From: a virus
IMG/VR virus record: IMGVR_UViG_3300047509_000156
Coordinates: 42,482-106,481 of that record
Strand: one strand, 5' to 3'
DNA: 64,000 bases
Position numbers and translations under genes: made by a program. The notes beneath the pieces were generated by a model. It searched no databases. It was not told the origin of the DNA and saw only the letters and a list, made by a program, of their open reading frames with translations. Of the stretch, positions 45,772-63,577 are shown piece after piece (the first letter of the stretch is position 1; the number at the start of each line of letters is the position of its first letter).

Positions 45772-45918
45772 AGCGGGTTCTCCTGGGAAAAACGGTTGCC
45801 TTGTTCTCTCTCGACGTTATACTATACGCAGTTGTCTCCTTCTTGTGACAGAGAGATCGGTAGAATCCAGAGAATATCGGTCACAGTCCGGATGAATCGG
45901 CGTATATCAAGTGTCGCC

Positions 45919-45955
45919 ATTTTCCCCCGGCCAAAATCCGGGGGCGGATTGAAAC
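45919..45955 (+). CRISPR. Solitary CRISPR-repeat-like unit in a 5' leader
   Basis: ATTTTCCCCCGGCCAAAATCCGGGGGCGGATTGAAAC, between promoter 45880-45907 and the RBS. Confidence 0.7.
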
Positions 45956-45977
45956 AAGAGAGAAAGGACGGTGAAAC

Positions 45978-46584
45978 GTGGAGACGGCAGAACCCAAGGA
46001 ATCCTGGCGGATTGTCTGGCGAGCGGCGGCGGATTTGATCTCTCTGGAGGAACTGCAATTTATTCAGGTGACATTGGCGAGCGATGATCCGAGATGGGTC
46101 CAGGGCGCCACGACCAGTCCTCCCCCCTTTGCAGGCTGTGGCAGATTGGCCCGTGGAAGCCGCCTGTCTGTTCGGCCTATGTGGAGTGTTCAGCGGCGGC
46201 GGTTGGGGAGAGGCAATCGTCTCGGACACTGAGGATCGGTTTGCGAGACTCTGTTTCGACGTGGACCAGAAACTAGGCGAGCCTGCCGGCGTGAGATTTT
46301 TGCTCAACTGGCATGATGAGGCGCCCCGTGAGGAGGTCCGCCAGTCCTTACTCACAGAGATTACGGACGCCATCTCCTCCCGACTGTCCTCCCTCCGCGA
46401 CCGTCTCGCCAATCTGGGCGGGCAGCGTATCCTCGCCGAGGTGGAGTTGCAGGACTTCCTCGCGGAAGGTGACACGGGACTCTCGCCGGACCCGTCCCGT
46501 GGCAAGGCGGCACAGGAACGCCTCGACACCATCAACGCCGAGTACGCACAGGTGCGCGAGGAATACGCTAGGGCTACGGCGTGA
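45978..46584 (+). pseudogene. Planctomycete-type hypothetical gene split by a +1 frameshift
   Basis: ESWR.VWR..DDPR.VQGATTSPPP continues as LQAVADWPVEAAC in another frame at the C6 run near 46122. Confidence 0.65.
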
Positions 46585-46652
46585 ATTGTTGTCACAACTA
46601 CGAGAATATGCCGTATATCAGGGTGTCGCCCGGAAGCGTAAGGAGAAGAACC

Positions 46653-46925
46653 GTGAGCAAGAAGACAGCGAAAGGTGTTCGCTCAAAGGTAACTCTCTAC
46701 ATCGACAGCGGCGCCGTGCAGGTCTTTGCTGGACAGTTGCATCCCGCCGTGTTCACCGAGGAGGAAGCCTGCCGCATTCTCCTAGCGCATAAGGATCTCC
46801 TTGCCGCGTGTCGCAGCGCCCTGACACTCGTTGCCACAATGCAGAGTATGCCGCCGTCTGTGGATTGCATTGAGAGCGTTCTCGAGCAACTCGAATCCGC
46901 CATCGCCAAGGGAGAATCGCCGTGA
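46653..46925 (+). CDS. Hypothetical protein
   Basis: Own promoter at 46591; AAGGAG RBS; DLLAAC..A...AIAK motif. Confidence 0.6.
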   Translation: MSKKTAKGVRSKVTLYIDSGAVQVFAGQLHPAVFTEEEACRILLAHKDLLAACRSALTLVATMQSMPPSVDCIESVLEQLESAIAKGESP

Positions 46926-47142
46926 TCCAGACTGTGAATAAACTTGTCGGCAAGATCGCCGCCCGTGCCGCCGAGTTGGCCAACATGAAAATCAACCGGC
47001 TCCGTCTGGAGGCACCAGCCTACGAGGAGAGCGTCGCTGCTCATTTGAGGATCGCCAAGTTGGATTTCCCTGACCGAGGAAGACTCATCGAGGCGATTCT
47101 TCTGGAGGAGTTCAGCGAGGAGTTTGATCGGAGTATTGATCC

Positions 47143-47454
47143 ATGACACCCACCACCCCCATCCGTGGCCTCCACGATGTCACGCGAATCGCCAGTGGCT
47201 ACGGCATCCCCTGGCAGGTCGCCCTGACGCCCGAATGTTTCGAGAGGTGTATTCGCGTCGGCGTCTTCTGGAGCAAAGAAGAGGACCGCCTCGCCGACGT
47301 GATTTACGCCCTTGCCGTCGCCCTGAGAAGCTGCCGCTGGTGCTGGCGTATCTACGTACCCTCGGGGACACGAGTTCCCGACGTGGTTAAACTGCGGGCA
47401 CGGCGGGAGGAGAATAACGAGGAAGTACGAATTATCGTGGACCTGGAGGAGTGA
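47143..47454 (+). CDS. DUF6573-like protein
   Basis: DVT..A...GI...VALT...E..RL.DV. Confidence 0.55.
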   Translation: MTPTTPIRGLHDVTRIASGYGIPWQVALTPECFERCIRVGVFWSKEEDRLADVIYALAVALRSCRWCWRIYVPSGTRVPDVVKLRARREENNEEVRIIVDLEE

Positions 47455-47652
47455 TGAACAAATACGAACTGGCAGCCAAGATCGGCGATCTGGCTGAAGA
47501 GGCTGGAGAATCCTACGCCGCCGTTGTCCTGCTCGCCCTGGCCGGAGCGGTAATGATTGGACTGGAGAGAGAGTTGGCCGATGTTTGTGTTCTCGTCTCG
47601 CAGAGACAGAAGGATTTCTGCGACAGAAGTCTCAAGGCAAAGGATAACTAGC

Positions 47653-48141
47653 ATGGGAGACCGTAGCCGCTTCCGACTGTTCGCTCAACTGATCGCCGAG
47701 AGGTTCCCTGACCGCAAGGCGCGAATCGCCGACGTGGCCTGTGGCAAGGGGCAACTGCACAGTGAGTTGCACCTCCTGGGTTATCGCAACGTCGTCTCCT
47801 GGGACAAGCGGAAGAGGAACCTGCGGCGACTTTCAGTGGGATTCCGCTACGAGTGGTTCGACTACCGAAACGCTCCCAGGGGTTACGATCTGGTGGTTGG
47901 GATGCACCCCGACGAGGGCACGGACCACATAATCCTGTACGCCGCCAAGCACAAGGTTCCTTTCCTCGTCTGCCCCTGCTGTGTGCTTCCAAGTGCTGCG
48001 GAGTACGGCGGGCAGCGTGCCTGCTACACGGACTGGATGCGTCATCTCGTCGGTTTGGCACGTTCCCGAAGGATGACGACCGACACCGTATCTTTGCCGA
48101 TGGATGGACGAAAACAGGTAATCGTGGGAGGCTGTCGATGA
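47653..48141 (+). CDS. SAM-dependent methyltransferase-like protein
   Basis: ADVACGKG.L, VVGMHPD, PF.V.PCC. Confidence 0.8.
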   Translation: MGDRSRFRLFAQLIAERFPDRKARIADVACGKGQLHSELHLLGYRNVVSWDKRKRNLRRLSVGFRYEWFDYRNAPRGYDLVVGMHPDEGTDHIILYAAKHKVPFLVCPCCVLPSAAEYGGQRACYTDWMRHLVGLARSRRMTTDTVSLPMDGRKQVIVGGCR

Positions 48142-48473
48142 GCGTCATGAACCTGCGCTGGCGTTCCGATTCCAAGGTGGAACTGACCCTGTGCTGGCCG
48201 GACGGTCGCAGTTTCGTTACCGTTGCCACGAGAAACGGTGATCACATTGACATCGACACGCCTTATTTCCCCGACAAAGGCGACATCGATTCAGTCGAGG
48301 CGATACGCGACGTGACGCAGTGGTTGGCGCTGGGAGCCTGCTGTGCCCAGATGCTTGTCGGGTTCGACCACGCCACACTGGAAGATCTCGTCGCCGGCAG
48401 GAAGATGCTCCAGATTCCCAACCCGATCATCTCCATCACAATCGGGGTGGTGGACGCTGTGGAGGATAAGTAA
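48138..48473 (+). CDS. Hypothetical protein
   Basis: Coupled ORF. Confidence 0.5.
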   Translation: MSVMNLRWRSDSKVELTLCWPDGRSFVTVATRNGDHIDIDTPYFPDKGDIDSVEAIRDVTQWLALGACCAQMLVGFDHATLEDLVAGRKMLQIPNPIISITIGVVDAVEDK

Positions 48474-48973
48474 TGTCAGAACGATTCATGACGCCCGAGA
48501 ACGGGCTTTGCTCCTTTTTGCCGAAACGAAACGATTTGAGGTATTTAAGAGTAAAAAAGGAGCAAAGCCCCGAGAACGCCGACGCCTTCGTGGATTTTCC
48601 GCCCGCCCGCAAGGAATGCCCGAATCATCTTCCCGATGGGAGGCTTTGTGCCCGCTGCCACGGTTTCGGCGGCTGGAACCTGGAATTGAACGCCTACCCG
48701 AAAACGAAGGAGCAAGAAGATGCGATCCGCGACAACCTTCGCAGGTGTCCGGTGACGAACCTGCCCGGTCCCGACATGACGAACGCCGAGTTCCGGCATC
48801 ACTATGTCCACTTCCGCGCCAGTTGCTCCAACTGCAACGGCTGGGGTTGGGTCAAGAAGGAACAGGGCGATCATGTCCACGAGTGGGTGGAGAGCCGCAA
48901 TGTGGGGAAATGCCTGAACGAGTACACCTGTAAGACGTGCGGTGAAAGGCAGACGGTGGATTCGTCGGACTAG
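48473..48973 (+). CDS. Zn-finger protein
   Basis: C..C.G.G motifs. Confidence 0.65.
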   Translation: MSERFMTPENGLCSFLPKRNDLRYLRVKKEQSPENADAFVDFPPARKECPNHLPDGRLCARCHGFGGWNLELNAYPKTKEQEDAIRDNLRRCPVTNLPGPDMTNAEFRHHYVHFRASCSNCNGWGWVKKEQGDHVHEWVESRNVGKCLNEYTCKTCGERQTVDSSD

Positions 48974-49356
48974 CGGATGGTATTGCGCCCGGCCTGCTGG
49001 TCGGGTGTGGATTGAAACGCCTGAAGCGCCATGATCTCCTGTTGCTTCCTCTCGATCTCCCTGGCCTTCTCCTCGCTCTTGCGGAGTTCCGCTGCCTCGA
49101 TGGCGGCGGCCAGGTCATCGGCACAGTGCCCGATCAGTGCCTTGGCCTGGTCGATCGACAGGGTGATCTCTTCGTGGGTCGCCGTGGGTGTCGGTCCGGA
49201 GTGGTGCATAAGAGGAGGAAGGGGCCGGCGGATCTTGATGGACGTACCGGAGGCGAGGATCAAGATGGCGTCGGGAGGGAGGGCTTTCTTGGCCATGTGG
49301 GACAACCTTACGGGTGGGGGCGGAATCGGCTCTGGGAGGCGGTAAACGTGGTTCAT
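48970..49356 (-). CDS. Hypothetical protein
   Basis: Coupled ORF; C-terminus encoded by the antisense of a CRISPR-like repeat. Confidence 0.55.
   Translation of the reverse strand: MNHVYRLPEPIPPPPVRLSHMAKKALPPDAILILASGTSIKIRRPLPPLMHHSGPTPTATHEEITLSIDQAKALIGHCADDLAAAIEAAELRKSEEKAREIERKQQEIMALQAFQSTPDQQAGRNTIR
48983..49018 (+). CRISPR. Solitary CRISPR-repeat-like unit
   Basis: TTGCGCCCGGCCTGCTGGTCGGGTGTGGATTGAAAC; 9-bp stem with 2 G-U pairs. Confidence 0.7.
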
Positions 49357-49553
49357 TCCTTCGGCTTCATGATGTCGGCGTACATGGACTTGGCGTCCTC
49401 GTTGAGGGAGTCGGCCAGTGACTTACCGCCCTCGGCGCGACGCTGCTCGGAGTATCCAATTGCAACTGCTTGTGCTTCTGGTTTTCCCGCCCGGCGTTCC
49501 GTGGCGATGTTCTCGGATCGTGCTTCGTCCGAAGGGGAATGGTTAAGCGGCAT
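49353..49553 (-). CDS. Small phage protein
   Basis: MPL....S..A.S.NI..E..AGKP..QAVAI motif. Confidence 0.7.
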   Translation of the reverse strand: MPLNHSPSDEARSENIATERRAGKPEAQAVAIGYSEQRRAEGGKSLADSLNEDAKSMYADIMKPKE

Positions 49554-49902
49554 GGCTGGCTCCCTCTTTCTCTGGGGCGACGACGGCGAGCAGGTGGCTC
49601 TCCGGCATGATAACCAATGTTTTGCCGTTATGCTCAACCTCGGAGCCCTGGTAGCGCGGGTAAAGGACGGTGTCGCCGACCTTAACCGTCAGAGGGTAGC
49701 GGCCTTCCGTCGCGTATCGCGTCTGGGTCTTGGCGGAGAGCATCTCGGGCACTACGAGTCCTGGCCCAACAGCAACCACGGTGCCGCGCTGCGGCTTATC
49801 CTTGGCCGTATCAGGGATGTACAGACCGCTCTTGGTCCGGTCGGGTGCCTCCAGAGGATCGATGACAACGCGGTCGTTCAGAGGAGAGATCGGGTAACTC
49901 AT
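49543..49902 (-). CDS. groES: Co-chaperonin GroES
   Basis: PLNDRVV, TKSGLYIPDTAKDKPQRG.VVAVGPG, VKVGD.VLY..Y.G. Confidence 0.95.
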   Translation of the reverse strand: MSYPISPLNDRVVIDPLEAPDRTKSGLYIPDTAKDKPQRGTVVAVGPGLVVPEMLSAKTQTRYATEGRYPLTVKVGDTVLYPRYQGSEVEHNGKTLVIMPESHLLAVVAPEKEGASHAA

Positions 49903-49984
49903 GGAATTACTCCTGGTTTCGTGGTCACAGGTTACTACGAGTAGCGTATATGACTCGTCGCCCGTCAGCAACACGGAGAGAAAG

Positions 49985-50703: not shown

Positions 50704-50811
50704 TCCAGCATATACAAAGCGCCCGAACCCAAGAAGGAGAAATACCAATGACAGCGACTCAGAAGATCCAGCGATTTCGCTCAAGATTGCCCTCAAAGAA
50801 GCCAAATAGCC

Positions 50812-51189
50812 ATGACCATTACTGACCTGGAAAACCTGCTCGCCCTGGTCCTAGCGGACGGACCCGGCGCCGACGTGCAATTGATCGCTGCCGACGCGGC
50901 AGAGGACGCCGACCGTCCCTTCCTGGCTGAATGTCTGCGCTGGATGCACGCCGGCAAGAAGTGGCCAGATCATGGTGAACATTTGCCAGATGGAGCAACG
51001 TGGAGGTGGTATGAAAGCAGCGATCACCCCGAATCGTCGCGTCTCCCACAATGCGAGGGAGAGTTTGTTAAGTTCTGGCGTTCTTGGAAATGGCATGATT
51101 CGGTTGCTACTGCTATCCGTACCTTGTGGAGCGATTGGGAGACTGCCCGCAGGAGCGGATGGCAGCCGGAAAACCTGTCACAACCCTGA
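50812..51189 (+). CDS. TIGR02996-like protein
   Basis: LLALVLADGP..DVQLIAADAAEDA. Confidence 0.65.
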   Translation: MTITDLENLLALVLADGPGADVQLIAADAAEDADRPFLAECLRWMHAGKKWPDHGEHLPDGATWRWYESSDHPESSRLPQCEGEFVKFWRSWKWHDSVATAIRTLWSDWETARRSGWQPENLSQP

Positions 51190-51244
51190 CCTTACGACGT
51201 ATCTCTAATATCGCCCCTAACCCGCCAAGAGGAGGGATGAGACG

Positions 51245-51544: not shown

Positions 51545-51608
51545 CCCCCACCCCCTCCGGCCAGCGGCACCGGCGGGGATAACGAGGCCGCTGAGGGAGG
51601 GGTGGGAG

Positions 51609-52350: not shown

Positions 52351-52705
52351 GGAGCTGCTTGACCTTGCCTCGTGGATCTCCCGCCACCCGCGATTCAGGA
52401 GCCTCTTGCGGTTCCTGCCGGGTGGGGGATTTGTGCGGATCACCGCCGGCCGTAATTGGCTGGACGTGGCAGATGCGGCCGGGGTGTTGCGGAGTGTGCT
52501 GATAAGCCGTACAGCCCGATCGCGCATCGCCCGCCTCTTCGAGAGCGAAGACTTGGGACCATCAACCCTCGCCGCCGCCACCCACGCCCTTCGCCAGCGT
52601 GCGGCACAGCTGCGACGTAGGTATCCCGAGGGGTAATTTTCTGTCACAACGGCAGCGTTCGACCGTATATCTGATCGTCGCCCTACCCGCCAAGGAGATA
52701 GAACA

Positions 52706-52933
52706 GTGGAGAATCACAGCAAATTCCTCGCCCGTGCCCTGTACTGGAGCGAGGGAAACAAGGAATTCCGCCGGCAGAATCAGTTCTGGGACTGGCGCCT
52801 TTCCGCCTGCCCGTATCCTGTCCTCTCGGAAGCCTGGGAGTGCTGGCGTACCGGCTGGCTCGCAGGGATGGAGGAAGCCAGGGGTGAGCGGTATAGCGAT
52901 ACACCGGATGGGGACGGCGACGTTCCTTTTTGA
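52706..52933 (+). CDS. Rmf/CrpP-like small protein
   Basis: CPY......W..GW motif; promoter at 52643. Confidence 0.55.
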   Translation: MENHSKFLARALYWSEGNKEFRRQNQFWDWRLSACPYPVLSEAWECWRTGWLAGMEEARGERYSDTPDGDGDVPF

Positions 52934-52999
52934 TCGGTCACAATCGCCCGATGGTTGCGTATATAAGTTGTTCGCCTCAAACAGCCAAGGGAGAGAAAC

Positions 53000-53563
53000 A
53001 TGACGACTGCACAAGAGATTGAAACACTGGCCGCGCAGATGGGGTTGAGCCTAAAGACGGAATTCGTGCCCTTCTCGCGGTCCCGTAACAAGGGCGAGAA
53101 ATCGCCTTCGCTCAACTGGAAGGTGACGCTATGGAAGGGACTGGCTGGGCCGGCTGTCCCGTTGCCTTCAATCGAAGCGCACGCCATCTTGACGACCGAC
53201 TACAGCGCCGGTTGCGCCCACTGTCCGAGTTACGAGCAGGGAAATAATAACGCCCCTCGCGCCGTGGCGGTCGATGCCGAGTGCGAGACCGGGTACGCTC
53301 ATAGCATCATGGGCATGAATACAAGGAAAACCGGCAAGCGGATTGCGCCGTCCTTCGCGGACGTGCTGTATTCGCTGGTGATGGATGCGGGCGTGATCGA
53401 CTACGGCAACTTTGAGGAGTGGGCCAGCGCTTTCGGCTGCGACATCGACAGTCGCACAGCGGAGCATACTTACCGCTCCTGCCTGGAAATCGCGCTCAAA
53501 CTGCGAAACGGCATCGGTGAGGAGGCATTGGCAAAACTCCGCGAAGCGTTCACCGACTACTAA
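53000..53563 (+). CDS. Hypothetical phage protein
   Basis: P...DVL.SL..DA...FEEWA..FG.D.DSR.A...Y..C; promoter at 52937. Confidence 0.75.
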   Translation: MTTAQEIETLAAQMGLSLKTEFVPFSRSRNKGEKSPSLNWKVTLWKGLAGPAVPLPSIEAHAILTTDYSAGCAHCPSYEQGNNNAPRAVAVDAECETGYAHSIMGMNTRKTGKRIAPSFADVLYSLVMDAGVIDYGNFEEWASAFGCDIDSRTAEHTYRSCLEIALKLRNGIGEEALAKLREAFTDY

Positions 53564-53624
53564 CCGTCACATTATCGCCCCTCTGTCGTATCTACCCTGT
53601 CGCCCCTTCTTTGGAGGAAAAGTC

Positions 53625-53801
53625 ATGTTTGAGGATTTGACAGCGGTAAAAGCCTGGCTGTTGTGGGCCGGACTCGGAAAGCAGATCGACACGCTATCCG
53701 AGGGCCTTTGCTACGAAGATGACGGCGATACTTATCGCCTGATCGGTAAATGCGAAGAGATGCGTGCCGCCCTACTTCCCTTGTGGGAAGGCAAACTGTA
53801 A
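53625..53801 (+). CDS. Small cassette gene
   Basis: Promoter at 53566; GGAGG RBS. Confidence 0.55.
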   Translation: MFEDLTAVKAWLLWAGLGKQIDTLSEGLCYEDDGDTYRLIGKCEEMRAALLPLWEGKL

Positions 53802-53834
53802 CCCTATCGCCCCTTCTTAGGAGGTTGTGGAACC

Positions 53835-54047
53835 ATGCCGGAAACGATTGGCCCTGTACTGGTGGAAGCGGAATTGCTGGAGCAACTGGCAGCGAAGTGG
53901 GAAGATACGGCGGCTGAATTTCGCTACGAAATACACGGCACCAACGAGCAGACTCCTAGTTACGGATGGCTGCAAGGAAACGCCAGATCGTACCGTATGT
54001 GCGCCGAAGAACTCCGTGCCCTCATCGCCTCCAAGAAAGGACCGTAA
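53835..54047 (+). CDS. Small hypothetical protein
   Basis: AGGAGG RBS. Confidence 0.55.
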   Translation: MPETIGPVLVEAELLEQLAAKWEDTAAEFRYEIHGTNEQTPSYGWLQGNARSYRMCAEELRALIASKKGP

Positions 54048-54117
54048 TCTAGGCTGTCACAAGGAAAAGATCCGGACGTATATGAGTTGCCCACAACATC
54101 CCGCCAAGGAGAAAACC

Positions 54118-54660
54118 ATGAGCAAGAGAGAACTGCTTTCGATCCGTACCGCACTAATTCAGGACGACAATCCCGATCTGTCCTACCTCGGAAAGTGGGC
54201 CAGTCGGTCCAGGGGACAACACTGGATCGACCGCGACACGGGAACGCTCTACGACCCCGACGGCAACGAGATCGCCACGCACGAAGACGGTGGGGTGTTC
54301 TTGGACCGCAACGCCTTCGAGCTGTTCATCGTGGGCCAGTGGGCCGGTGATGAGAACGTGAAACTGTCCGATGCCATCGAGTACTCTTTCCGCGACTGGA
54401 AGCGCATGGAAGCCTTTAACGACAACGAATGGGAGATGTACGGCGTGGTGTGCCGGGCCAAGTGGAAGGATGAGGCGGGATACGAGCATACGATCGACTC
54501 GCCTGGACTGTGGAGAGTCGAATCGGACAGCGGCAAGGACTACTTCCGCGAGATAGCCGAAGATCAGGTGTCCGAGATCCGCGCCGATCTCGAAGCGTTG
54601 GGATTCTCCGAGGAGGAGGTAGCCGCTGCGATGGACCTGGAAACGATCGAGTCGGAATAA
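54118..54660 (+). CDS. Acidic hypothetical phage protein
   Basis: D.D.SYL, S.GLW.VESDS...Y; promoter at 54056. Confidence 0.7.
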   Translation: MSKRELLSIRTALIQDDNPDLSYLGKWASRSRGQHWIDRDTGTLYDPDGNEIATHEDGGVFLDRNAFELFIVGQWAGDENVKLSDAIEYSFRDWKRMEAFNDNEWEMYGVVCRAKWKDEAGYEHTIDSPGLWRVESDSGKDYFREIAEDQVSEIRADLEALGFSEEEVAAAMDLETIESE

Positions 54661-54720
54661 CCTGTCACACCTTCGCCCGTTGTTCGTATCTCATTCGTCG
54701 CCCCAATACGAGGACAGGCC

Positions 54721-54921
54721 ATGATTGCAACCATCAAAGAGGAATGCGCGTGTGCCTGGTGCAATTCGCCGCTCTATGTGGGCGACAGGGCCATATTCGA
54801 TGACGGCAAGGACGGCCTTTATCGCTGGTGCTGTAATCCCAGGTGCCGCGACCGCGCCCGCCGCAAAGCCGGCCTGCCCACACCGATGCCTGCCCCGGCG
54901 CCGGTTGTATGGGACGATTAA
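54721..54921 (+). CDS. Small Cys-rich cassette gene
   Basis: Promoter at 54664. Confidence 0.6.
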   Translation: MIATIKEECACAWCNSPLYVGDRAIFDDGKDGLYRWCCNPRCRDRARRKAGLPTPMPAPAPVVWDD

Positions 54922-54982
54922 CTGTCACACCTTCGCCCTTCAAGCGTATATCCCGGTGTCGCCCGTTCCAGGGAGAAAGCCA

Positions 54983-55528
54983 GTGGACAAGATCAGCCAG
55001 ACCGCTACCATTGTGGACTACCACGCCATCCAAGAGGCCATCGACCGCGAACCGCTCGAAAGTTACCATCGGCTCGCCTTGGCTGATTGGGCGGAAGAAC
55101 ACGGCGACGCGATCACGGCCAAGAGGCAACGCGACATCGCAGTTGCCATCGAAGATCCCAGCAATTACGCCGTCGCCTACTGGCAGGGAAGCGAAGCGCT
55201 GGCGCACGCTAGGGGCAAGGAAAAGAAGCTGGCCGGCAACACCTACCTCTATCGCATCGACCGCGACCGGCTAGGAATCCGCCTGCACAATACTACCATC
55301 GTGGAGATTCACGCGGACGGTACTTTTACGCTCAATTCCGGCGGATGGTTGACGGCGGTAACGATGGATCGCATCAGCGAGAACAGTCCGGCCCGGTTGA
55401 CTGGTCGCAACGCACAGCGCCGCCGGAACAGCGAAGACATCGAAGGCGTCTGGTGGCTCCGCTTCGACGGCAAGGTCGTGCCTTTCTTCGACGGAATCAG
55501 GATCGACGCTTACGGATGGGTGATTTGA
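54983..55528 (+). CDS. TIGR02996-like N-terminus fused to a phage domain
   Basis: AIDREP.....LALADWAEEHGD, then LH.T.IV....LNSGGW.T..T..RI. Confidence 0.75.
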   Translation: MDKISQTATIVDYHAIQEAIDREPLESYHRLALADWAEEHGDAITAKRQRDIAVAIEDPSNYAVAYWQGSEALAHARGKEKKLAGNTYLYRIDRDRLGIRLHNTTIVEIHADGTFTLNSGGWLTAVTMDRISENSPARLTGRNAQRRRNSEDIEGVWWLRFDGKVVPFFDGIRIDAYGWVI

Positions 55529-55588
55529 TCCGGTCACAAAGCGCCACGGATGGCGTATTCCCTTCGCCCGCATTCCTCTGGAGAGAAC

Positions 55589-55738
55589 ATGAGACAGCCA
55601 GTGTTGCTTGACCTGTTCTGTAAAGCCGGCGGAACGTCGCATGGCTACGCTCGCGCTGGATTCGACGTGATCGGCGTTGATATTGAACCGCAGCCAAACT
55701 ACCCGTTTAACCCCATCGTCCAGGCTGATGCGCTATAA
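55589..55738 (+). pseudogene. Truncated DNA cytosine methyltransferase
   Basis: LLDLFC.AGG...GY..AGF.V.GVDI.PQPNYPF..QADAL then stop; catalytic PPCQ absent. Confidence 0.8.
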
Positions 55739-56103
55739 GTGCTTCGCGACCTGATCTCTGGTATCGGTATCCAGACGCGCGGCAGGATGCTGAAGCGCTA
55801 CCTGTTGGAGCGCTACCCTTATGGCTGGGGAAGCTACACTTTCCCCATTGAGCTAGGCAAAACAGCCGGCCAATCGTGGAGCGGTTCCGGCAACAGCATT
55901 TCCGCTCGCGATATTGATTCACGTTACTAGAGAACGTTGGTCACAACCATCTCGCCAGAGCGTATATGAGGCATCGCCACAAACAAGGGAGAAGACCATG
56001 AAACAGGCAATCGAAACACTGGCCGGCGAGATGGGACTGACACAACCTCGCCCCTGATGCGTATATGTGTTGTCGCCTTCAACCCGCCAAGAGGACAGAA
56101 GAC

Positions 56104-56721
56104 ATGAGCAATCACGGCATCGACTACGGCATGGGAACGACGAACATCGACCGCGAAACGGGCATCCGCTACGGGGTTATCTCCGTCCATGAGGTAACGC
56201 AAGCGTGGTGCGATTCGTCGGAAGCGGACTACGGCGAACCTCGTTGCCCTGAGTGCGGCAATGATGCGGTTGATGGGGATTCCGCTATCGACAATGACGG
56301 TATCTTGGACGATCTGCGGGAAGAGGGCACGTTCACGCCGGAAGAAATCGAAGACGGCGACAGGCAGTATCTCGGATGGAAGATCTTGCACCACGCTTGC
56401 GGCGACTACGCTTGCGATTCCTGTCGTCTGCTGTTCGACGGCGAAGACGCCTACGGTGACGAACCGCTCTCCTTCACCTTGGACGATGGGGAGTACAAGG
56501 CGGAACAGGGTAGCGACGGTGATATCTTCATCTTCTCCAGCCCGTACTACACCTACGCTCAGTTCTGCTCCCCCTGCGCTCCTGGCGCGTGCTACCTGAT
56601 GAATCCGACCGATACGGATGGACCGAAAGCGTACTGTTTCTCCCACGATTGGTTTGATGGAGGCAAGGCGCCGTATCCCGTGTACCGTGTCTCGGATGGA
56701 ACGCTGGTCGAGCCGGAATAA
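56104..56721 (+). CDS. Acidic Cys-rich phage protein
   Basis: N.D.ETGIRYGVI, SPY...CSPC.PGA; promoter at 56039. Confidence 0.75.
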   Translation: MSNHGIDYGMGTTNIDRETGIRYGVISVHEVTQAWCDSSEADYGEPRCPECGNDAVDGDSAIDNDGILDDLREEGTFTPEEIEDGDRQYLGWKILHHACGDYACDSCRLLFDGEDAYGDEPLSFTLDDGEYKAEQGSDGDIFIFSSPYYTYAQFCSPCAPGACYLMNPTDTDGPKAYCFSHDWFDGGKAPYPVYRVSDGTLVEPE

Positions 56722-56801
56722 CAACCGTCCGCGCTGGTCACAATGGGCCGGCGCGGACGTATCTTGTCCACCCGAACAATCCTAGGCAAAGAGGTGATGC
56801 G

Positions 56802-57467
56802 ATGCGAGGAACAATGGACATTGACCGGATGGCGGAAGAGGCAATGGGTAACTGGCGCCGTTTCGAGTCATTCTGCTGGGATCGTGCTTACGAGTTAGAA
56901 GACGCCGATTCGTGGTGCATTGTCTACGGCGCCAACCGTGATAGCGGGCTACTTGACCAGAGTAACGCGGAGGCAACCGACAAGGCGCTTGAGTCGTTCA
57001 TGGATGGGGATAACCCCGATGTCCTCTCGGAACATCATGGACACTGGGGATGCGGATGGGTAGATGGATGGGCAATCCGCGTCCGCGACAGTCAAGGCGC
57101 CTTGACTCCGGCATTCCGCGCTTACTGTGAACTGCAAGAGGCGCTTGAGGATTACCCCGTTCTGGACGAGGAAGACTACTCCCGTCGCGAGTACGAAGCA
57201 ACCATTGAAAACCTGTCCGATGCGGCGCGTGGTCTCGACTACGAATTGCCAGAGGGGTGGGAAAGCGAAGTCTTTTCGTGGTTGTGGGATCATGGCAGCA
57301 TGCTGGAAGCGCTGGGGATTCCTCTGGAATGGTGCGATGAATGGGACGACTGTAGCGAGTGCAACGGACTACTTCGGCATCAACCCGATTCCTACGGATG
57401 GACACCTTCCTATTCGGAAGAACTCTTGCGGTCCGGCGAGATGGTTTGTCTAGAGTGCGCCGAATAG
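56802..57467 (+). CDS. Acidic phage protein
   Basis: RDS.LL..SN, HW.CGWV, L.DYPVLDEED.S..EYE; promoter at 56737. Confidence 0.75.
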   Translation: MRGTMDIDRMAEEAMGNWRRFESFCWDRAYELEDADSWCIVYGANRDSGLLDQSNAEATDKALESFMDGDNPDVLSEHHGHWGCGWVDGWAIRVRDSQGALTPAFRAYCELQEALEDYPVLDEEDYSRREYEATIENLSDAARGLDYELPEGWESEVFSWLWDHGSMLEALGIPLEWCDEWDDCSECNGLLRHQPDSYGWTPSYSEELLRSGEMVCLECAE

Positions 57468-57530
57468 GTCATACCCCATCGCCCCGTCCGTATCTCACTC
57501 GCCCAACATTCCCGCCAAGGGAGATAAGAG

Positions 57531-57749
57531 ATGTTCACACCGCGACACGTCGCCGGGCTGATCCGCCGGCTTCCCCGGAATGCCAGTGTATGCGTCCAGG
57601 TTGAGTTAGGCCGCACGAACGGCCGGATAACCGGCTCGTTGCTCCCCGTCCCGCGTATCGTCGCTCTACGTGCCATCCGGAGGCTCTACGGGACGGGGGC
57701 AAAGGTGGCGGTATCGGATTTCTGCGGGGATCTTGTGCTGGGAATGTAG
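57531..57749 (+). CDS. Small cassette gene
   Basis: Promoter at 57468 plus CCCGCCAAGGGAG leader. Confidence 0.6.
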   Translation: MFTPRHVAGLIRRLPRNASVCVQVELGRTNGRITGSLLPVPRIVALRAIRRLYGTGAKVAVSDFCGDLVLGM

Positions 57750-57809
57750 GTCACAACGGCGCCGGATGAGCGTATTTGAAGTGCCCAAAATCACCAAGAG
57801 GAATCGATC

Positions 57810-57983
57810 ATGCACGAGACGAACGCCACTATCCGCGATCGGGACGGGTTTCTGACGCGGGGCAACGTGTACCGGGAAACGGGACAAATCGGCCGGTACA
57901 TGGTGGAGCGCTTTTACGTTCTCCGTGGTTGCGCCGGACGTATGTACGTCAAGATGTTCAACGGTCGGTGGGTGGAAGCCTAG
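57810..57983 (+). CDS. Small cassette gene (57 aa, not in ORF track)
   Basis: Promoter at 57750; GAGGA RBS; stop abuts the next promoter. Confidence 0.55.
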   Translation: MHETNATIRDRDGFLTRGNVYRETGQIGRYMVERFYVLRGCAGRMYVKMFNGRWVEA

Positions 57984-58036
57984 GTCACAAATATCGCTCC
58001 GCGTATCTTGTTCATCGCTAACCGGGAGGACGGATC

Positions 58037-58198
58037 ATGTGGATTCTGAGTTATCTGAGGCAGTATGGGAATCGGTTCACGGAGTTCCGTACAGAGTACA
58101 CCAGCATTGAAGCGCTCGAAAGCGCGATTGCCATGCTGAGCGGGCAAAGCGGTGTTTCGGCTATGAATGTCACATTCGACAACCGGGCGCATATCTGA
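58037..58198 (+). CDS. Small cassette gene (53 aa, not in ORF track)
   Basis: Promoter at 57984; GGAGG RBS. Confidence 0.5.
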   Translation: MWILSYLRQYGNRFTEFRTEYTSIEALESAIAMLSGQSGVSAMNVTFDNRAHI

Positions 58199-58234
58199 GG
58201 TAGAGAACACCAATCCGCCAAGAGGGAGAGAACA

Positions 58235-58741
58235 ATGCAGACAACGGAAACGGTCGAGAATCTCGCGAGTATGCTTGCCGCCGTCGAAAGTGCCCCGATG
58301 GACATTGACGCAAGGCGCATTCTCGCGGATGCCTACATGGACGCGCAGCAAGACGGCATGGCAGAACATCAGCGTAAGATCGTCGCCGGACTGGAGAAGG
58401 TCAAGGATTGGCGCGGCGCAACGATCGGCAAGGGACACGCGATCTATCGCACTCTTACCGATCGGCTCAAGTATCGGAAGAAGGAAGGGCGTGTTCACGT
58501 TGCCCTCTCCGTGAGCATCACGGGAACGTGGTGGGATGGTGGTTCTAGGTCGTCGTTCTACGCTCTGGATCTCACGACCGGCGCACTCTCCCCAATCGCC
58601 GGTCCACAATGGGGAGATGCAAAGCCTAGTATCGAGCATCCCATCCGCAAGGGAATTGCCATCGTGGAGTGCGGTACGTTCTGCGGTAAACCGGCGACGG
58701 CGCGAATCACTCTGCATCCCGATGACGCATGGCGAATCTAA
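58235..58741 (+). CDS. TIGR02996-like N-terminus fused to a phage domain
   Basis: LAAVESAP.D...RRILADAY, then T.WDGGSRS...F.GK. Confidence 0.7.
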   Translation: MQTTETVENLASMLAAVESAPMDIDARRILADAYMDAQQDGMAEHQRKIVAGLEKVKDWRGATIGKGHAIYRTLTDRLKYRKKEGRVHVALSVSITGTWWDGGSRSSFYALDLTTGALSPIAGPQWGDAKPSIEHPIRKGIAIVECGTFCGKPATARITLHPDDAWRI

Positions 58742-58819
58742 CCTGTACGCTCCGCGTCACAACAGACGGCGCGGAGCGTATCTTGATTGCCCATAACCAC
58801 GAATGAGGGAGAAGGACCA

Positions 58820-59041
58820 ATGAAGGTTTGCGAAACATGCGGTAATGACATCGACGGCGCTCGCGATGGGGAGAATACCTGTCGTGATTGCGATGAATTT
58901 GCGACCATTGGCGTTGTCGGTGCGCTGCAAGCCGCAAAGCGCCGCAAGAGGAACGCTAGCAGACGGGCAAGGGAAAACGCTCTGCGGTCGTGCGGACTAG
59001 TCAAGGTGAGAGGTGCGCTTGGCGGGACGTATTGGGAGTAA
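58820..59041 (+). CDS. Small phage protein
   Basis: GLVKVRGALGGTYWE C-terminus; promoter at 58756. Confidence 0.7.
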   Translation: MKVCETCGNDIDGARDGENTCRDCDEFATIGVVGALQAAKRRKRNASRRARENALRSCGLVKVRGALGGTYWE

Positions 59042-59119
59042 CGTGTAGGACCGGCGAGCAACCACGCGAAAGAGCGTACAATAGTGGTTGCTCGCCGTTT
59101 CTCTTTAGGTAATCACCAT

Positions 59120-59641
59120 ATGTCGGCACGCGGAAGAGGCGGAATCACCCTGGAACAAGTCATGGTCCGCAGGCAGACGGCATGGCAACTGCGGTGCAAA
59201 GGTTTACCGTACCGCGACATTGCGAAGGAGATGGGGTTATCGTATCGCTCTGCTTTCCGGCATGTTGAGAAGATGCGCGAATGGTGTCTGAAGAACGCCA
59301 CGCAAGACTATGTTGCCCGTTTGCTGGAGAAGGAAGAACAATTCCTTGAGCTAGCCAACCTGGCAAGGACAGCATACGAGCGTAGCGTTGAACAGGGCAC
59401 ACCGGACGGCTCCTGGCTCGATCGTGCCGCTAACTATCTGGGGAAAGCCGCCGCCCTCTGGCAGCCAACGCAAGCAACGGCCAGTGTAACCGTCACCACG
59501 ACCACATCCGATGGAGATTCCGCCGCGCTTGCACGGTTCTTCGCTGGGGTATTCTCCCAGCAGAAGGCGCCTGAAGCGCTTCCAGCCGTCGTGGAAGTAG
59601 AGTCTCGGAAGTTAGAAGCCGAACCTACGGACGGGAAGTAG
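59120..59641 (+). CDS. Putative terminase small subunit (HTH)
   Basis: RR..A..LR..G..YR.IA..MG.S HTH plus helical core. Confidence 0.6.
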   Translation: MSARGRGGITLEQVMVRRQTAWQLRCKGLPYRDIAKEMGLSYRSAFRHVEKMREWCLKNATQDYVARLLEKEEQFLELANLARTAYERSVEQGTPDGSWLDRAANYLGKAAALWQPTQATASVTVTTTTSDGDSAALARFFAGVFSQQKAPEALPAVVEVESRKLEAEPTDGK

Positions 59642-60127
59642 TCTCACCTAATGCCCGCCAATCGTGATTAATGGCACCAAGGGCGCGAGCAAGGCGCATT
59701 CGGCCTACAGGTCGTCTTGCGGAACGATCGGCGTTTATACGCGATCCTGTACGTTCACTTTGGTTTACAAAGTGAACAGCACTTAAGTCCTTAAAAATTG
59801 CCGTGGTTACGTCGCGAACTCCGGGAATTCAAACGATCGTTTGAGGGGAAAACGGCCTTTTGCCCTGTCACAACCTGGAGAAGCGAGCGTATCTATAGTA
59901 TCGCCTTCAACCTCAGACACGGGAGAACATCAATGGCCGCTGTTGTTCGGTCCGCCCTCCGCGCTCTCTATGCTCGCCAGACGAGACGAGCTAATCTCCG
60001 TGCTCGCCGCATCCTGGCATGGCGCAGAGCACGCACCGCCAAGTAACCCTATTACGCACGCGCCGTCACAACACGACGGCGCGTGCGTATCTCTGTTAGT
60101 CCGTTCAACCCGCCAAGGAGACCGATC

Positions 60128-60655
60128 ATGCTTCATGACACTATCCACGCCAGCGATGACACCACGGCCATCGACGTTGTGCCGGCCCGCAAACCCCGCA
60201 GCCGCAAGCCGGCTCAGACGGTCAAGGCGCCGTCGGCTGCCGCAACCTCCCGTGCCTACGCTGCACAGCGTGCGGAGCGCTGGAGTCGGGCCTACACCTA
60301 CAGCGCCGTCGTCCTGTCGTCCGGCCTCAACGCCTACGCTGCCGCAACCGAGTCTCACGCCGTCAACCCGTACATGATGGCCGCATCCGCCCTGATCGGT
60401 GCCGTTATCCCCGTTCTCGTGTGGATGCTCGGCTCTGTCGTTGCTTGGAGCTACAAAGCCGGCCACCGCAGGCTGTCCTACGTCACCGGCGCCGTTGCCG
60501 GTTGCGTCCTTGCTCTGTCCGTCGTTCACGTCGCAGGCGCCCTTGGTGCTCTCACTGGCTCCGGAGTCATCCTCAGCGCCCTGCTCGCCATCGGCATCGA
60601 TTGCGGCCTGGTTGCGAGCGAAGCGACGGCCATCCTGGTTTCCGTTGCAGAGTAG
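60128..60655 (+). CDS. Multi-TM membrane protein
   Basis: Four hydrophobic segments; promoter at 60065. Confidence 0.7.
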   Translation: MLHDTIHASDDTTAIDVVPARKPRSRKPAQTVKAPSAAATSRAYAAQRAERWSRAYTYSAVVLSSGLNAYAAATESHAVNPYMMAASALIGAVIPVLVWMLGSVVAWSYKAGHRRLSYVTGAVAGCVLALSVVHVAGALGALTGSGVILSALLAIGIDCGLVASEATAILVSVAE

Positions 60656-60733
60656 CCCAATCCCGCCCCCGTCACAACCGACGACCGCCAGCGTATCTCT
60701 TGTGCCCACCCTTCGCCCGCAAGGAGCATCCTA

Positions 60734-60922
60734 ATGTGTTACGACAATGGTTCTCGCGTCGCGATCGTCGTCCCCTTCGGCCCCAACGCGGGGCAGGTTT
60801 GTGGGCACGGTACCGTGATCGGGTTCATCACCAGCGGCATCGACGGGCGATGCTACTTCGTGCGGGAGGACGACGGCACGACAGTCCAGCACAGCGATTC
60901 GTGGATGCGCAAGGCGCGGTGA
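60734..60922 (+). CDS. Small SH3-like cassette gene
   Basis: Promoter at 60671; G.RV..GTV..Y.V..DDG. Confidence 0.55.
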   Translation: MCYDNGSRVAIVVPFGPNAGQVCGHGTVIGFITSGIDGRCYFVREDDGTTVQHSDSWMRKAR

Positions 60923-61118
60923 CGGCCAGCGGGGGAATCGCCCATCCCCGGTACTGGCGCTTCGCCGGAGGATTGCGGGGAGGGGGCGGTGGGTGTCCTT
61001 CTATGCCCATACCATTTCTCGTCACAACGTGGTGACAGGGTACGGTACTGGCGCTCGCAGCGATATTCGCTTCCTGCCCTCGATGGGTGTCTTCCCGTGC
61101 CTCCGACATTACCTGTCG

Positions 61119-61580
61119 CTACGCCGTGACGCCGGCCTCCACGAACGCCTTGCAGATTCGTCGAAGTCTCTTGACGACCCACTCCCAACTACTGTCGTAG
61201 AAGTGCGAGTAGTCGTCGTCCGGTTCCCACAATCGATCGCGATACCGGCTCTTGAAGATGTAGGCGGACATGACGTGCCGGCACGTTCCCATCGTGGGCG
61301 GGTTGGGGATAAACGACGCAATGACGCTGAACTTTGACCGGCGGGAGAGACAGATAATCGTCTTGTCCGTCTTTCGTGTCAGGTAAACCAACTCATCGGC
61401 CGTTTCAAAGGAATGGGCCAGATCGATCCACGAGCGAAGCAGTTTATCCCCCCACGAGGCCATCAGACGCCATACGGCACTCTCTGGATTGCCGCGTTCT
61501 TCGAGGAGATCGGCCATCGCTAACCATGCCAGTGGGGAGCGGTCGATAAGTATAGCCTTCTCCTGAGGTGTGTGTCTCAT
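61119..61580 (-). CDS. TIGR02996-like protein
   Basis: AILIDRSPLAWLAMADLLEERG; promoter at 61649-61674. Confidence 0.7.
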   Translation of the reverse strand: MRHTPQEKAILIDRSPLAWLAMADLLEERGNPESAVWRLMASWGDKLLRSWIDLAHSFETADELVYLTRKTDKTIICLSRRSKFSVIASFIPNPPTMGTCRHVMSAYIFKSRYRDRLWEPDDDYSHFYDSSWEWVVKRLRRICKAFVEAGVTA

Positions 61581-61741
61581 GATTACTCCACGTTATAATC
61601 GACACCGGCCATGCGTCTTTCTCCTTTCGGTGACAGTGATACTCTACTATACGCCCCATTCCCCCATCCGTGACAGATATTCCACGGATTTTCCTTCTCC
61701 TGCTGGTGACAGTCGCGTAGAATACCACCAAAGGAGAAGCT

Positions 61742-62107
61742 ATGAGTCACCCGATCGAATCTTATACTGAAGGTTGGCAGAAAGTCCTGCGTGAATGGCT
61801 GGAGTACGCCTACAACCGTGGCCGTGAGGATGTCTGCCAGAATCCTATTAGAACGCCGCAAACCCCCATCTCGGCAGACGAGATGCGAGCGGCCCTGGTG
61901 GCTGCCTGGGATGCCCTCGACGAACGTATTCGTGCGAGAAACATCCAGGTTAATTTCCACGACCTGGCAACCGATCTGGCGCCTCTCATCAAACTTCCCT
62001 GTGCCGCACCCTATTCCGCTCCTTCCTGGGAAGAAGGCTTCGAGGCCGGCTTCAAGGCAGGATTCTCTTCCGGGCGCTCCGATTCAGTCATAACGCCGAA
62101 CCCATGA
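61742..62107 (+). CDS. Hypothetical protein
   Basis: AAGGAG RBS; TAGAAT upstream. Confidence 0.6.
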   Translation: MSHPIESYTEGWQKVLREWLEYAYNRGREDVCQNPIRTPQTPISADEMRAALVAAWDALDERIRARNIQVNFHDLATDLAPLIKLPCAAPYSAPSWEEGFEAGFKAGFSSGRSDSVITPNP

Positions 62108-62212
62108 AACTCCTGATCCTTGCCGACGCCTGCCTGATCTACCTCATCGCTCTGTCGCTCTACGGGCACACAGAGGCCAGGACCTATTTTAAGGAATGCC
62201 TGGAGGAATCCG

Positions 62213-62719
62213 ATGGCTGATTCTGGTGGAACCCTGGGAAACCCATTCGTCCCGTCTTCAGAGACGATCGACTACTTCAACGATGAAGGTGTCTGGACGG
62301 AAGTCATCTCCAGCAACGTGACGCACTTCGCCTTCTTCTGGATGATCTCCCATGAGGGCAACAGGCGCCTCGTCACCGGGGTCCTGGGCGTCAAATACTG
62401 GTGGAAAGGCGCAGGGGCAACCTACCTCTACATGGGCGTTCCGAGGCACTACTTCGAGGCAGCCGTCAACACCTCCGGCGCCGGCACGTCGATCCACGGA
62501 CGGGGAGCCATCAAGAGTTTCTCCGAAGGCCGGAAGGTGGTCCGGGCGAGTAGGGCGGTGTCGAAGCACTTTCGCGTGACGCCCAGATTAGATAGGGGCG
62601 CATCAAATGTCCTTCCAAAGGGTATTTCGGAAGAAGGAACTGGCGGCAGCGCCGGCCCCGGCGGGTGGACCTGGAGAAATTTACGCCGTACCCACATACC
62701 CTATTCACACGTGTCCTGA
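62213..62719 (+). CDS. KTSC-like domain protein
   Basis: V.SSNV....L.V.Y....Y.Y.GVP...F......S.G. Confidence 0.6.
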   Translation: MADSGGTLGNPFVPSSETIDYFNDEGVWTEVISSNVTHFAFFWMISHEGNRRLVTGVLGVKYWWKGAGATYLYMGVPRHYFEAAVNTSGAGTSIHGRGAIKSFSEGRKVVRASRAVSKHFRVTPRLDRGASNVLPKGISEEGTGGSAGPGGWTWRNLRRTHIPYSHVS

Positions 62720-62901
62720 GCAGGCAACTCCATCAGTCCGGAACGTTTTCCCTGTCCCTTCTCGGGTTTGAATGGATTCGCTGCAAACTCCCGCTCGCAG
62801 CCGCAGCAGAGGATCACATCAACCCCCTCCAACTTCTCGTCGGACTCGATCCAGTTAAACTCCCCGCAGTGCGGGCAGGCGAGCCGGTGCCAGGTCTCCA
62901 T
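62701..62901 (-). CDS. Small Zn-ribbon protein
   Basis: CPHCG...CCGC; AAGGAG RBS. Confidence 0.55.
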   Translation of the reverse strand: METWHRLACPHCGEFNWIESDEKLEGVDVILCCGCEREFAANPFKPEKGQGKRSGLMELPAQDTCE

Positions 62902-62902
62902 A

Positions 62903-63493
62903 TCATTCTCCTTCGAGGGCGGATTTGAGGATACTGATGGTTGCCGAGTGCGCCGTTGCGCTTGTCATTTTCTCTGCCAGGAACTTCGCCTTCTCGATCG
63001 CCGAACGCAGCCGATCGATCTCCTCCCTGGCCTTCGTTGGTGGTAGCGGTGGGCGATCGGAGAAGTCGGCTAGTTCGGCCAGGAGAGTCTTCTTGATTGT
63101 TTCCGCCGACAGAGAGAATGACAACGACCTGTCGATGGCCTTCTCGATCCGTCTCCGCAGATCCGCCGCCCCCTGGGCGTAGAGTTCGTGGTCCTGCTGG
63201 AGTATGTCGAGCAGGTTATCCCTGGCGTCGATCTCGGCAAGGAGGAAGCGAACATCATCAGCGTAAGGGCCAACATATCGGGCGCGGTCGTGTAGTTCTG
63301 TCGTTCTAACCATATCCCTGATCTTGGCCATCTTGACGCCGTTATCGGTCGCCGCCTTCGCCCTGTTATCCTCCAGTGCCGCGTCGATGGCCTTCTGGAT
63401 TTCCATTTCTACGGACCAGGATTCTTTGGACGATCCGCCTCCGCTGGTTATTTTTCGTGCGGCATTGTAGGCGTGCTGACTGATGTCGCTCAT
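62903..63493 (-). CDS. Hypothetical coiled-coil protein
   Basis: Promoter at 63516-63541. Confidence 0.65.
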   Translation of the reverse strand: MSDISQHAYNAARKITSGGGSSKESWSVEMEIQKAIDAALEDNRAKAATDNGVKMAKIRDMVRTTELHDRARYVGPYADDVRFLLAEIDARDNLLDILQQDHELYAQGAADLRRRIEKAIDRSLSFSLSAETIKKTLLAELADFSDRPPLPPTKAREEIDRLRSAIEKAKFLAEKMTSATAHSATISILKSALEGE

Positions 63494-63577
63494 TCCTTAT
63501 CTCCTTATCCTTCAGATACGCTCTCTTCTCGCCATTGTGACAGCGATTCCCTAGAATACCACCCAGGAGGCAATCCG

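Follow-up and report, generated by a model that had tools for sequence, protein, structure and literature searches.

A recurrent two-part, promoter-like motif in front of the small genes of a large phage genome, and the sigma factors that may read it

Which signal serves the many small genes crowded onto one strand of a large phage genome, and which sigma factor would recognize it, are the questions raised by a 64,000-nucleotide stretch of viral DNA (IMG/VR record IMGVR_UViG_3300047509_000156) in which a short two-part sequence, GTCACA-N15-CGTAT, recurs in front of gene after gene. This whole stretch, called the window below, comprises bases 42482-106481 of a contig of 106,481 bp, and coordinates follow the window numbering unless marked as genome. 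The two ends of the contig overlap, indicating a circularly assembled phage genome, which codes for a large-terminase ATPase and a portal protein. Our conclusion is that the motif is very probably a promoter for an alternative sigma factor of the sigma-70 family. A more tentative proposal, which we rate a little short of an even chance when all of its parts are taken jointly, including the phage sigma factor S1 as reader, is that the motif is the main promoter class of this phage, made up of c(T/G)GTCACAA as the -35 element, a rigid 15-nt spacer and gCGTAT(A/C)T as the -10 element.

The window contains 25 exact occurrences of the pattern; the expectation derived from 100 dinucleotide shuffles is 0.02, and no single shuffle gave more than one. 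Twenty of the 25 lie within 45824-63541 and the remaining five at 2762, 5529, 17451, 25525 and 33522. The same region holds five variants, namely GACACA at 56039, GTCATA at 57468, a CATAT -10 at 58169, GTCACG at 61674 on the minus strand and a copy with a 12-nt spacer at 57984, and a further variant stands outside it at 13778 on the plus strand. With these one-mismatch copies and the N12 copy included, the total is 31 in the window and 33 in the whole 106,481-bp circular genome, to which the 42 kb beyond the window contribute only two. Of the 33 copies, 32 have a spacer of exactly 15 nt, the copy at 57984 being the exception. An initial annotation of this DNA had reported about 30 copies, including the five outlying ones, and a spacing of 15 nt with that same single exception (12 nt), and both its positions and its spacing were reproduced.

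The two half-sites are coupled throughout the genome: CGTA follows at N15 in 27 of the 51 GTCACA hexamers, and the -35 precedes 24 of the 43 CGTAT(A/C)T sequences. The extended consensus reads c(T/G)GTCACAA-N12-aG-CGTAT(A/C)T, based on 25 seed copies in which GTCACA is always found and CGTAT, by construction, never varies; the base before GTCACA is T in 14 of the 25 and G in seven. Furthermore, a blind search of all 5-mer/5-mer dyads in the whole genome returned the GTCACA/CGTAT motif and nothing comparable. After masking of the motif, dyad and hexamer enrichment aimed at a second (late) promoter class gave only coding repeats and terminator hairpins, and no second repeated motif was found in the masked intergenic DNA. 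Sigma-70 consensus sites scoring 10 of 12 matches number three in 106 kb, and the array has no excess of them.

The position of the copies relative to genes is equally regular. All copies in the window face a gene, as had been claimed for them, with the caveat that at 55940 this is a frame of 19 codons. In about 20 copies the preceding open frame stops 0-18 nt before the -35, at times abutting it so that TAG runs directly into GTCACA, which bears out the earlier remark that many begin close to the previous stop. The 8.3 kb from 52643 to 60922 contain 18 copies, approximately one per gene. Start codons with a GGAG-type Shine-Dalgarno sequence lie mostly 28-40 nt past the motif; the called starts span 17-80 nt, and two of these calls are doubtful. 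The leader elements that the initial annotation had described also recur: TCGCC, whose background frequency is about 2.8 per kb and strand, is found 6-8 nt past the motif in 17 of the 33 copies, and CCGCCAAG or a one-base variant of it about 17-19 nt past the motif in eight. No paralogue pairs were detected by BLASTP within the plus-strand array, and no Pfam family in the 10 cassette proteins examined. Consequently, the repeated part is the regulatory unit and not its cargo.

That this unit acts on transcription is indicated by one of the copies beyond the window. On the minus strand at genome 5482-5455, GTCACG-N15-CGTATAT stops 14 nt short of the start of the mature tRNA-Thr, one of two tRNA genes in the phage genome, and a tRNA gene requires a transcription signal and no translation signal, so the motif acts at the level of transcription. 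No RNA polymerase gene was found among 37 phage proteins scanned, 27 large ones from across the genome and the 10 cassette proteins; the expected reader is therefore the host core enzyme together with some sigma factor.

In shape the motif resembles the promoters of extracytoplasmic function (ECF) sigma factors, judging by its CGTA-containing -10, its rigid spacer and a -35 like that of the group ECF41, and we use the label for this shape and not as proof of class. Its two-part -35/-10 organization, the CGT in its -10 and its rigid spacer agree with ECF (group 4) promoters, whose spacer is about 16 nt long; the AAC core of the -35 that is typical of most ECF groups is absent, GTCACA standing in its place. 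The proposal that these copies form a regulon read by a host ECF sigma or by a phage sigma holds as far as the ECF-type promoter-like signal and the presence of a phage sigma gene behind one copy are concerned.

The sequences with which the motif can be compared depend on the host. The phage carries two homologues of TnpB-type transposases, and the best host clue comes from a TnpB that has 73% identity to a contig from a Planctomycetota metagenome-assembled genome (MAG); a second hint is a weak, sub-threshold match to TIGR02996 (NCBIfam) in one of the 10 cassette proteins. This is probably a phage of planctomycetes, an assignment resting on such sequence likeness and to be taken as a lead rather than a result. 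A scan of host-group genomes, which the initial annotation had recommended for Gemmataceae, was run on 201 Planctomycetota genomes and yielded chance-level counts: 69 matches, with a maximum of four per genome, much like a reversed-pattern control. The density of the motif in the phage is about 3,000-fold higher.

The phage itself codes for two sigma factors. S1 is a protein of 1,206 aa (genome 7276-10896, minus strand, outside the window) in which a C-terminal ECF domain is fused to an N-terminal region of 1,000 residues. Its last 170 residues pass TIGR02937 (44.4 bits, cut-off 42.9) and PF04542, and the protein ends eight residues past the TIGR02937 match, which covers sigma4. In a model of the C-terminus built from the single sequence (pLDDT 77), sigma2 has three helices and sigma4 four, with a linker of 28 residues between them, and the nearest solved folds are ECF sigmas: SigH, an EcfG-type RpoE, SigL, AlgU, BldN, SigW, CnrH and sigmaE. 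The gene lies on the strand of the portal gene, about 8 kb downstream of it and without a motif copy of its own, and no homologues of S1 were found in the protein collections searched. The host ECF sigmas nearest to S1 were considered and set aside, being only 25-33% identical to it and having no GTCACA-like promoter upstream.

The other sigma factor, S2, is a 278-aa protein encoded at 4634-5470 on the minus strand, with matches to Pfam PF04545 (Sigma70_r4; 1.5e-13) and TIGR02937 (68 bits). It is the phage sigma that the initial annotation had in mind; the gene exists and has a motif copy upstream, but its region 4 is RpoD-like, region 4.2 reading TRERVRQ as in RpoD, and its fold is like that of SigA and RpoS, not of an ECF. 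In an AlphaFold2 model (35-sequence alignment, pLDDT 79), sigma2 is joined by a long disordered linker to sigma4, which is followed by a C-terminal helix; the solved structures closest to this model by Foldseek are SigA, RpoS and sigma-32, not ECFs. The S2 family comprises about 36 clusters, and its alignment of 35 sequences has a conserved tail, DFxxxxxGxxIA, following the C-terminal helix beyond sigma4.

Homologues of S2, 27-34% identical, occur in four IMG/VR phages that have few genes in common with this one, and in all four both the motif and S1 are absent. In G003 (IMGVR_UViG_3300043444_000523) the homologue lies behind a sigma-70-like promoter, TTGAAA-N17-TAGACT. G001 (IMGVR_UViG_3300044680_000064) has 14 copies of cgGTcGTAGAAT, an extended -10 with canonical TAnnnT and no fixed -35, and one of them stands directly before its S2 homologue (TAGAAT extended -10). 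These copies, for example 18496(-), 23101(-) and 35747(+), are mostly found in an 18-40 kb block of small genes. The sequence CGTAGAAT of G001 and CGTATAT of the present phage have CGTA in common, and CGTA occurs in half of the G001 copies. No multi-copy two-part motif was found in the S2-bearing phages G003 and G004 (3300044511_000090); these two have seven and five intergenic copies, respectively, of the palindrome AATAGGCGCG-N3-CGCGCCTATT, which are probably bidirectional terminators common to two related phages. Since the homologues in G003 and G001 lie behind sigma-70-like or extended -10 promoters, S2 looks in those phages like a product of the early promoters and not like their reader, and by analogy the GTCACA motif may be the early class of this phage, with S2 as a sigma for later genes.

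As to the reader, our preferred candidate, a possible rather than a probable one, is the C-terminal ECF domain of S1: its modelled fold class matches the promoter class, S2 is RpoD-like and the phage is without sigma-70-type promoters. After it we rank a host ECF sigma and then S2, leaving what remains to some other sigma factor. Several observations weigh against the choice of S1 and against an ECF-type reading in general. Promoters of the SigB/SigF type (GTTTAA-N12-15-GGGTAT) and the -10 of Bacillus SigW (CGTA) resemble the motif too, so that the label ECF-like is not unique. The motif shares its -35 with ECF41, a family that the host phylum itself possesses (in 11 of the 201 Planctomycetota genomes), and the copy directly upstream of S2 would equally fit an autoregulated S2, a two-domain sigma with a 68-bit match to TIGR02937. 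S1 is a singleton, so co-variation of sigma and promoter has no relatives to rest on, and its sigma4 was not recognized by Pfam. Finally, the gene string that holds S1 looks late and has no motif copy, so that early action would need delivery in the virion.

A host ECF sigma, either ECF41-like or of another group, would be borrowed by the phage for its pre-late programme and perhaps activated by the envelope stress of infection; we regard this as rather unlikely. The ECF41 signature is matched in the -35, (T)GTCACA, as well as in the CGT portion of the -10, SigJ/ECF41-type sigmas exceed the family cut-off in the 11 genomes just mentioned, TGTCACA-N16-CGTC is present at seven of those 11 loci, and planctomycete genomes contain dozens of ECF candidates. 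However, compared with the seven host promoters the phage spacer is always one base short, the -10 has CGTA and not CGTC, and T precedes GTCACA in just 14 of 25 copies. Moreover, ECF41 sigmas control a single operon and occur in about 5% of the sampled genomes, the MAG with the closest TnpB has no ECF41 above the cut-off, and none of the conserved motif hits inspected in host genomes lies upstream of a sigma gene. Those hits were rejected as ECF promoters, as they resemble coding or palindromic operator-like sequence. A phage with two sigma factors of its own also has less need of a host one.

Somewhat less likely again is that S2 reads the promoters and activates its own gene, in which case the motif would be a middle class that comes into play after the first S2 has been made by read-through or from a weak host promoter. 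Autoregulation is typical of alternative sigma factors, S2 is a two-domain sigma with a perfect motif copy directly upstream, and the homologue in G001 is likewise behind its own multi-copy promoter, with CGTA in half of the copies. Against this, the residues R-E-R-x-R-Q of S2 are those which we take to read TTGACA in RpoD, where the third base is G and not the C of GTCACA; the nearest folds of S2 are group 1-2 sigmas and sigma-32; G003 and G004 have S2 without any multi-copy two-part motif; and there is no obvious source of the first S2. Finally, the motif might not be a phage promoter at all. A repressor, a recombinase or a packaging factor might bind it instead: TCGCCC, which seven copies have both in the spacer and downstream, could be a protein-binding site, and repeats at gene boundaries could serve recombination. 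We hold this very improbable, and with it a host housekeeping promoter: the motif is asymmetric, two-part, variable in its spacer and strictly gene-oriented, its distances to start codons and to the tRNA 5' end are promoter-like, and the genome has no other candidate promoter class. The housekeeping variant is contradicted by the chance-level counts in the 201 Planctomycetota genomes.

With S1 as the preferred reader, transcription of this phage could proceed as follows. The host RNA polymerase core carrying a two-domain, ECF-type alternative sigma would read the motif. Transcription would start about 6-8 nt past the -10, on the conserved (G)TCGCCC or immediately ahead of it, to give a 5' untranslated leader of about 20-35 nt ending in an AAGGAG ribosome site. 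Between 52.6 and 60.9 kb nearly every small gene would have a copy of its own, and because most units have no terminator between them, downstream genes would receive the summed transcription of read-through. Three copies embedded in hairpins would stop the transcripts arriving from upstream and restart transcription at the same spot. As the motif would drive S2, the helicase block, tRNA-Thr and other genes, we infer that it defines the pre-late programme, and S2 would be the likely sigma for a few late promoters. The initial annotation had spoken of an early host takeover; this timing was inferential, and the regulon also takes in the helicase block and the tRNA gene. S1 itself would be carried in the virion or made very early. 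That S1 is packaged and injected with the DNA, its ECF domain loading the host core at once and firing the approximately 30 promoters so that no host sigma is needed for the pre-late programme, strikes us as improbable; if true, injected S1 would be the sigma-factor counterpart of the virion RNA polymerase injected by N4-like phages.

Two things make the arrangement unusual: the motif appears to drive the gene of one sigma factor, and the other sigma, of ECF type, is part of a giant protein whose gene lies on the portal strand, downstream of the portal gene. It poses a testable question, by what means a phage that lacks sigma-70-type promoters begins its early transcription. If a phage ECF sigma reads these promoters, the two would constitute a compact orthogonal sigma-promoter pair with about 30 natural variants, which would be useful for studying non-AAC -35 recognition by ECF-type sigmas and as parts for synthetic circuits. 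The copies in the window are listed in the table.

Table. Copies of the GTCACA-N15-CGTAT motif and its variants in the window (for the hairpin copies, positions include the 5' part of the hairpin)
Feature	Position	Strand	Remarks
Exact copy	2760..2787	-	TCGCC leader; heads 146-aa gene 2290-2730
Exact copy	5527..5554	-	Directly upstream of 278-aa sigma gene S2
Variant GTCACT...CGTATAA	13778..13805	+	Precedes 297-aa gene 13886-14779
Exact copy	17451..17478	+	TCGCC leader; heads 75-aa gene
Exact copy	25523..25550	-	AGAGA-type spacer; heads minus-strand gene string
Exact copy	33520..33547	-	AGGAGA spacer; heads minus-strand string including helicase gene 25895-28255
Exact copy	45822..45849	-	Divergent partner of 45880; heads 272-aa gene 44953-45771
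Exact copy	45880..45907	+	First of plus-strand array; CRISPR-repeat-like unit in leader
Exact copy	46591..46618	+	Heads string of seven tightly packed/overlapping genes, 46653-48973
Exact copy	49924..49951	+	
Exact copy	51177..51204	+	Full TCGCCC + CCCGCCAAGAGGAG leader
Exact copy	52643..52670	+	Full leader
Exact copy	52937..52964	+	Previous stop 3 nt before
Exact copy	53566..53593	+	Previous stop 2 nt before
Exact copy	54056..54083	+	
Exact copy	54664..54691	+	TCGCCC in spacer too
Exact copy	54924..54951	+	Spacer 10/15 identical to that of 54664
Exact copy	55533..55560	+	
Exact copy	55940..55967	+	Heads 19-codon frame only
Variant GACACA	56039..56066	+	
Exact copy 56737-56764	56726..56764	+	14-bp hairpin 56726-59, -29.7 kcal/mol, z -5.3
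Variant GTCATA	57468..57495	+	Abuts preceding stop codon
Exact copy, -10 CGTATTT	57750..57777	+	
N12-spacer copy	57984..58008	+	
Variant, -10 CATATCT	58169..58196	+	
Exact copy 58756-58783	58745..58783	+	14-bp hairpin 58745-58781, -25.8 kcal/mol, z -5.4
Exact copy	59867..59894	+	
Exact copy 60065-60092	60053..60092	+	15-bp hairpin 60053-60089, -31.7 kcal/mol, z -8.0
Exact copy	60671..60698	+	Last of plus-strand array
Variant GTCACG...CGTATAG	61647..61674	-	Precedes 153-aa gene 61119-61580
Exact copy	63514..63541	-	Purine-rich spacer; heads 196-aa gene 62903-63493

Three copies of the array (56737, 58756 and 60065) lie within GC-rich hairpins of 14-15 bp, with folding energies of -26 to -32 kcal/mol and z scores of -5 to -8; none of the remaining window copies has a stable fold, so that the hairpin is a feature of 3 of the 31. 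In these copies the -35 hexamer lies in the loop, the 3' arm has the CGT of the -10 as its end and a T-rich, TATCTTGT-like run comes next, to which TATCT of the -10 contributes. From this layout, the same bases would form a composite element, a terminator as RNA for transcripts from upstream and a promoter as DNA.

Other copies fall into groups by their spacers or leaders. TCGCC(C) is present inside the 15-nt spacer of seven copies (52937-57495, for example 53566, 54664, 54924 and 56039), against about 0.2 expected, and could be a second regulator-binding site or the trace of a promoter duplication. A sub-family with a purine-rich (A)GGAGA(A) spacer comprises 25523-25550, 33520-33547, 45822-45849, 59867-59894 and 63514-63541, and in addition genome 15464-15491. 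Its spacers are up to 13/15 identical between copies, its members mostly head minus-strand gene strings, and five of the six are without the TCGCC leader, 59867 having both; these copies may be a separately regulated subclass. The leaders of 51177, 56039 and 60065 are near-identical. At 55940-56059 a perfect promoter and leader are followed only by the 19-codon frame, which runs into the next copy, as if this were a cassette whose gene has possibly been deleted or truncated. Together with the copy that has lost 3 nt of its spacer and with the spacer and leader sub-families (54664/54924 for the spacers; 51177/56039/60065 for the leaders), this cassette hints at turnover of the units.

A few features lie apart from the array. 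Two intergenic copies of a perfect palindromic hairpin, GGAGGAATCGGGCAAA(A/T)TTTGCCCGATTCCTCC, at window 28851-28875 and genome 14399-14423, are likely bidirectional terminators. Two sites, 189-211 on the plus strand and 17252-17273 on the minus strand, share AATCCTAG-N8/9-GGCGTATATGG, which is the -10 of the motif without GTCACA; one of them, after a terminator hairpin just upstream of the gene string of the capsid protein (gene at 14789-16288), may represent a variant late promoter. The minus-strand genes are interrupted in two places by genes on the plus strand, window 13886-14779 and genome 32328-33089, which are paralogues with 37% identity; the latter has a sigma-70-like site, TTGCCA-N16-TAGAAT, one of the three in the phage, and the former a variant motif copy. 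No known RNA families were found in the window.

Three known systems bear comparison with this one. ECF41 sigmas recognize TGTCACA-n16-CGTC, with a published spacer of 16 +/- 1, and a GTCACA -35 has been described for this group only (Wecke et al. 2012, PMC3426412), in agreement with the signature that the initial annotation had quoted. The -35 of the phage motif is identical, often with the leading T, its -10 contains CGT and its fixed spacer is within that range. In contrast, the spacer is 15 nt and not 16, the -10 is CGTAT(A/C)T and not CGTC, and about 30 phage targets stand against a single COE-sigma operon. No COE gene context was found at the phage motif, where the 10 cassette proteins examined gave no Pfam family and, among NCBIfam models, only the sub-threshold TIGR02996 match; no phage sigma has a SnoaL-like C-terminal extension, and neither phage sigma matches planctomycete ECF41 proteins even at E<=10. 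Membership in ECF41 was thus rejected on the spacer, the fourth base of the -10, the gene context and the type of sigma. In the planctomycete genomes themselves, TGTCACA-N16-CGTC is present at seven of the 11 SigJ/ECF41-type loci (L128, L130, L132, L133, L135, L136 and L138), in six of the seven at a distance of about 600 nt ahead of the sigma gene, which extends the published signature to Planctomycetota.

A mechanistic precedent is gp36 of phage phiEco32, a phage sigma for middle and late promoters (PMC12276001), which redirects the host core to a phage-private consensus repeated genome-wide. The present phage, with two sigma genes of its own, likewise has a private consensus, about 3,000-fold denser than in the 201 Planctomycetota genomes. 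The gp36 promoters amount to little more than one element in the -10 region, AATGTA, and gp36 itself is produced later than the early genes that depend on sigma-70, whereas here the motif has two parts and appears to drive pre-late genes, one of them for a sigma factor, in a genome with no visible early class of sigma-70 type.

The layout of the array, which is itself known from other phages, appears closest to the promoter-early stem-loop (PeSL) cassettes of T4-type phages, composite terminator/early-promoter units that lie between small variable genes and mediate gene shuffling (Arbiol et al. 2010, PMC2839356; Comeau et al. 2014, PMC4122927). PeSLs have sigma-70-type early promoters used by the host primary sigma, whereas the units described here are ECF-type and only 3 of the 31 have a stem-loop. 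Recombination at PeSLs is documented between related phages, whereas this array is known from one genome: the GenBank phage collection held nothing similar, and the matches in IMG/VR (two, single) and in JGI metagenomes (six, single, without shared proteins) are all consistent with chance, so that no motif-bearing relative was found, and the exchangeable modules proposed in the initial annotation are at most putative. What the two systems have in common is a short conserved regulatory unit that recurs, within a plastic part of a large phage genome, ahead of many small and unrelated genes, most of them unknown, here with 18 copies in 8.3 kb placed 0-18 nt past the preceding stop, and with some units that would be composite terminator/promoter hairpins.

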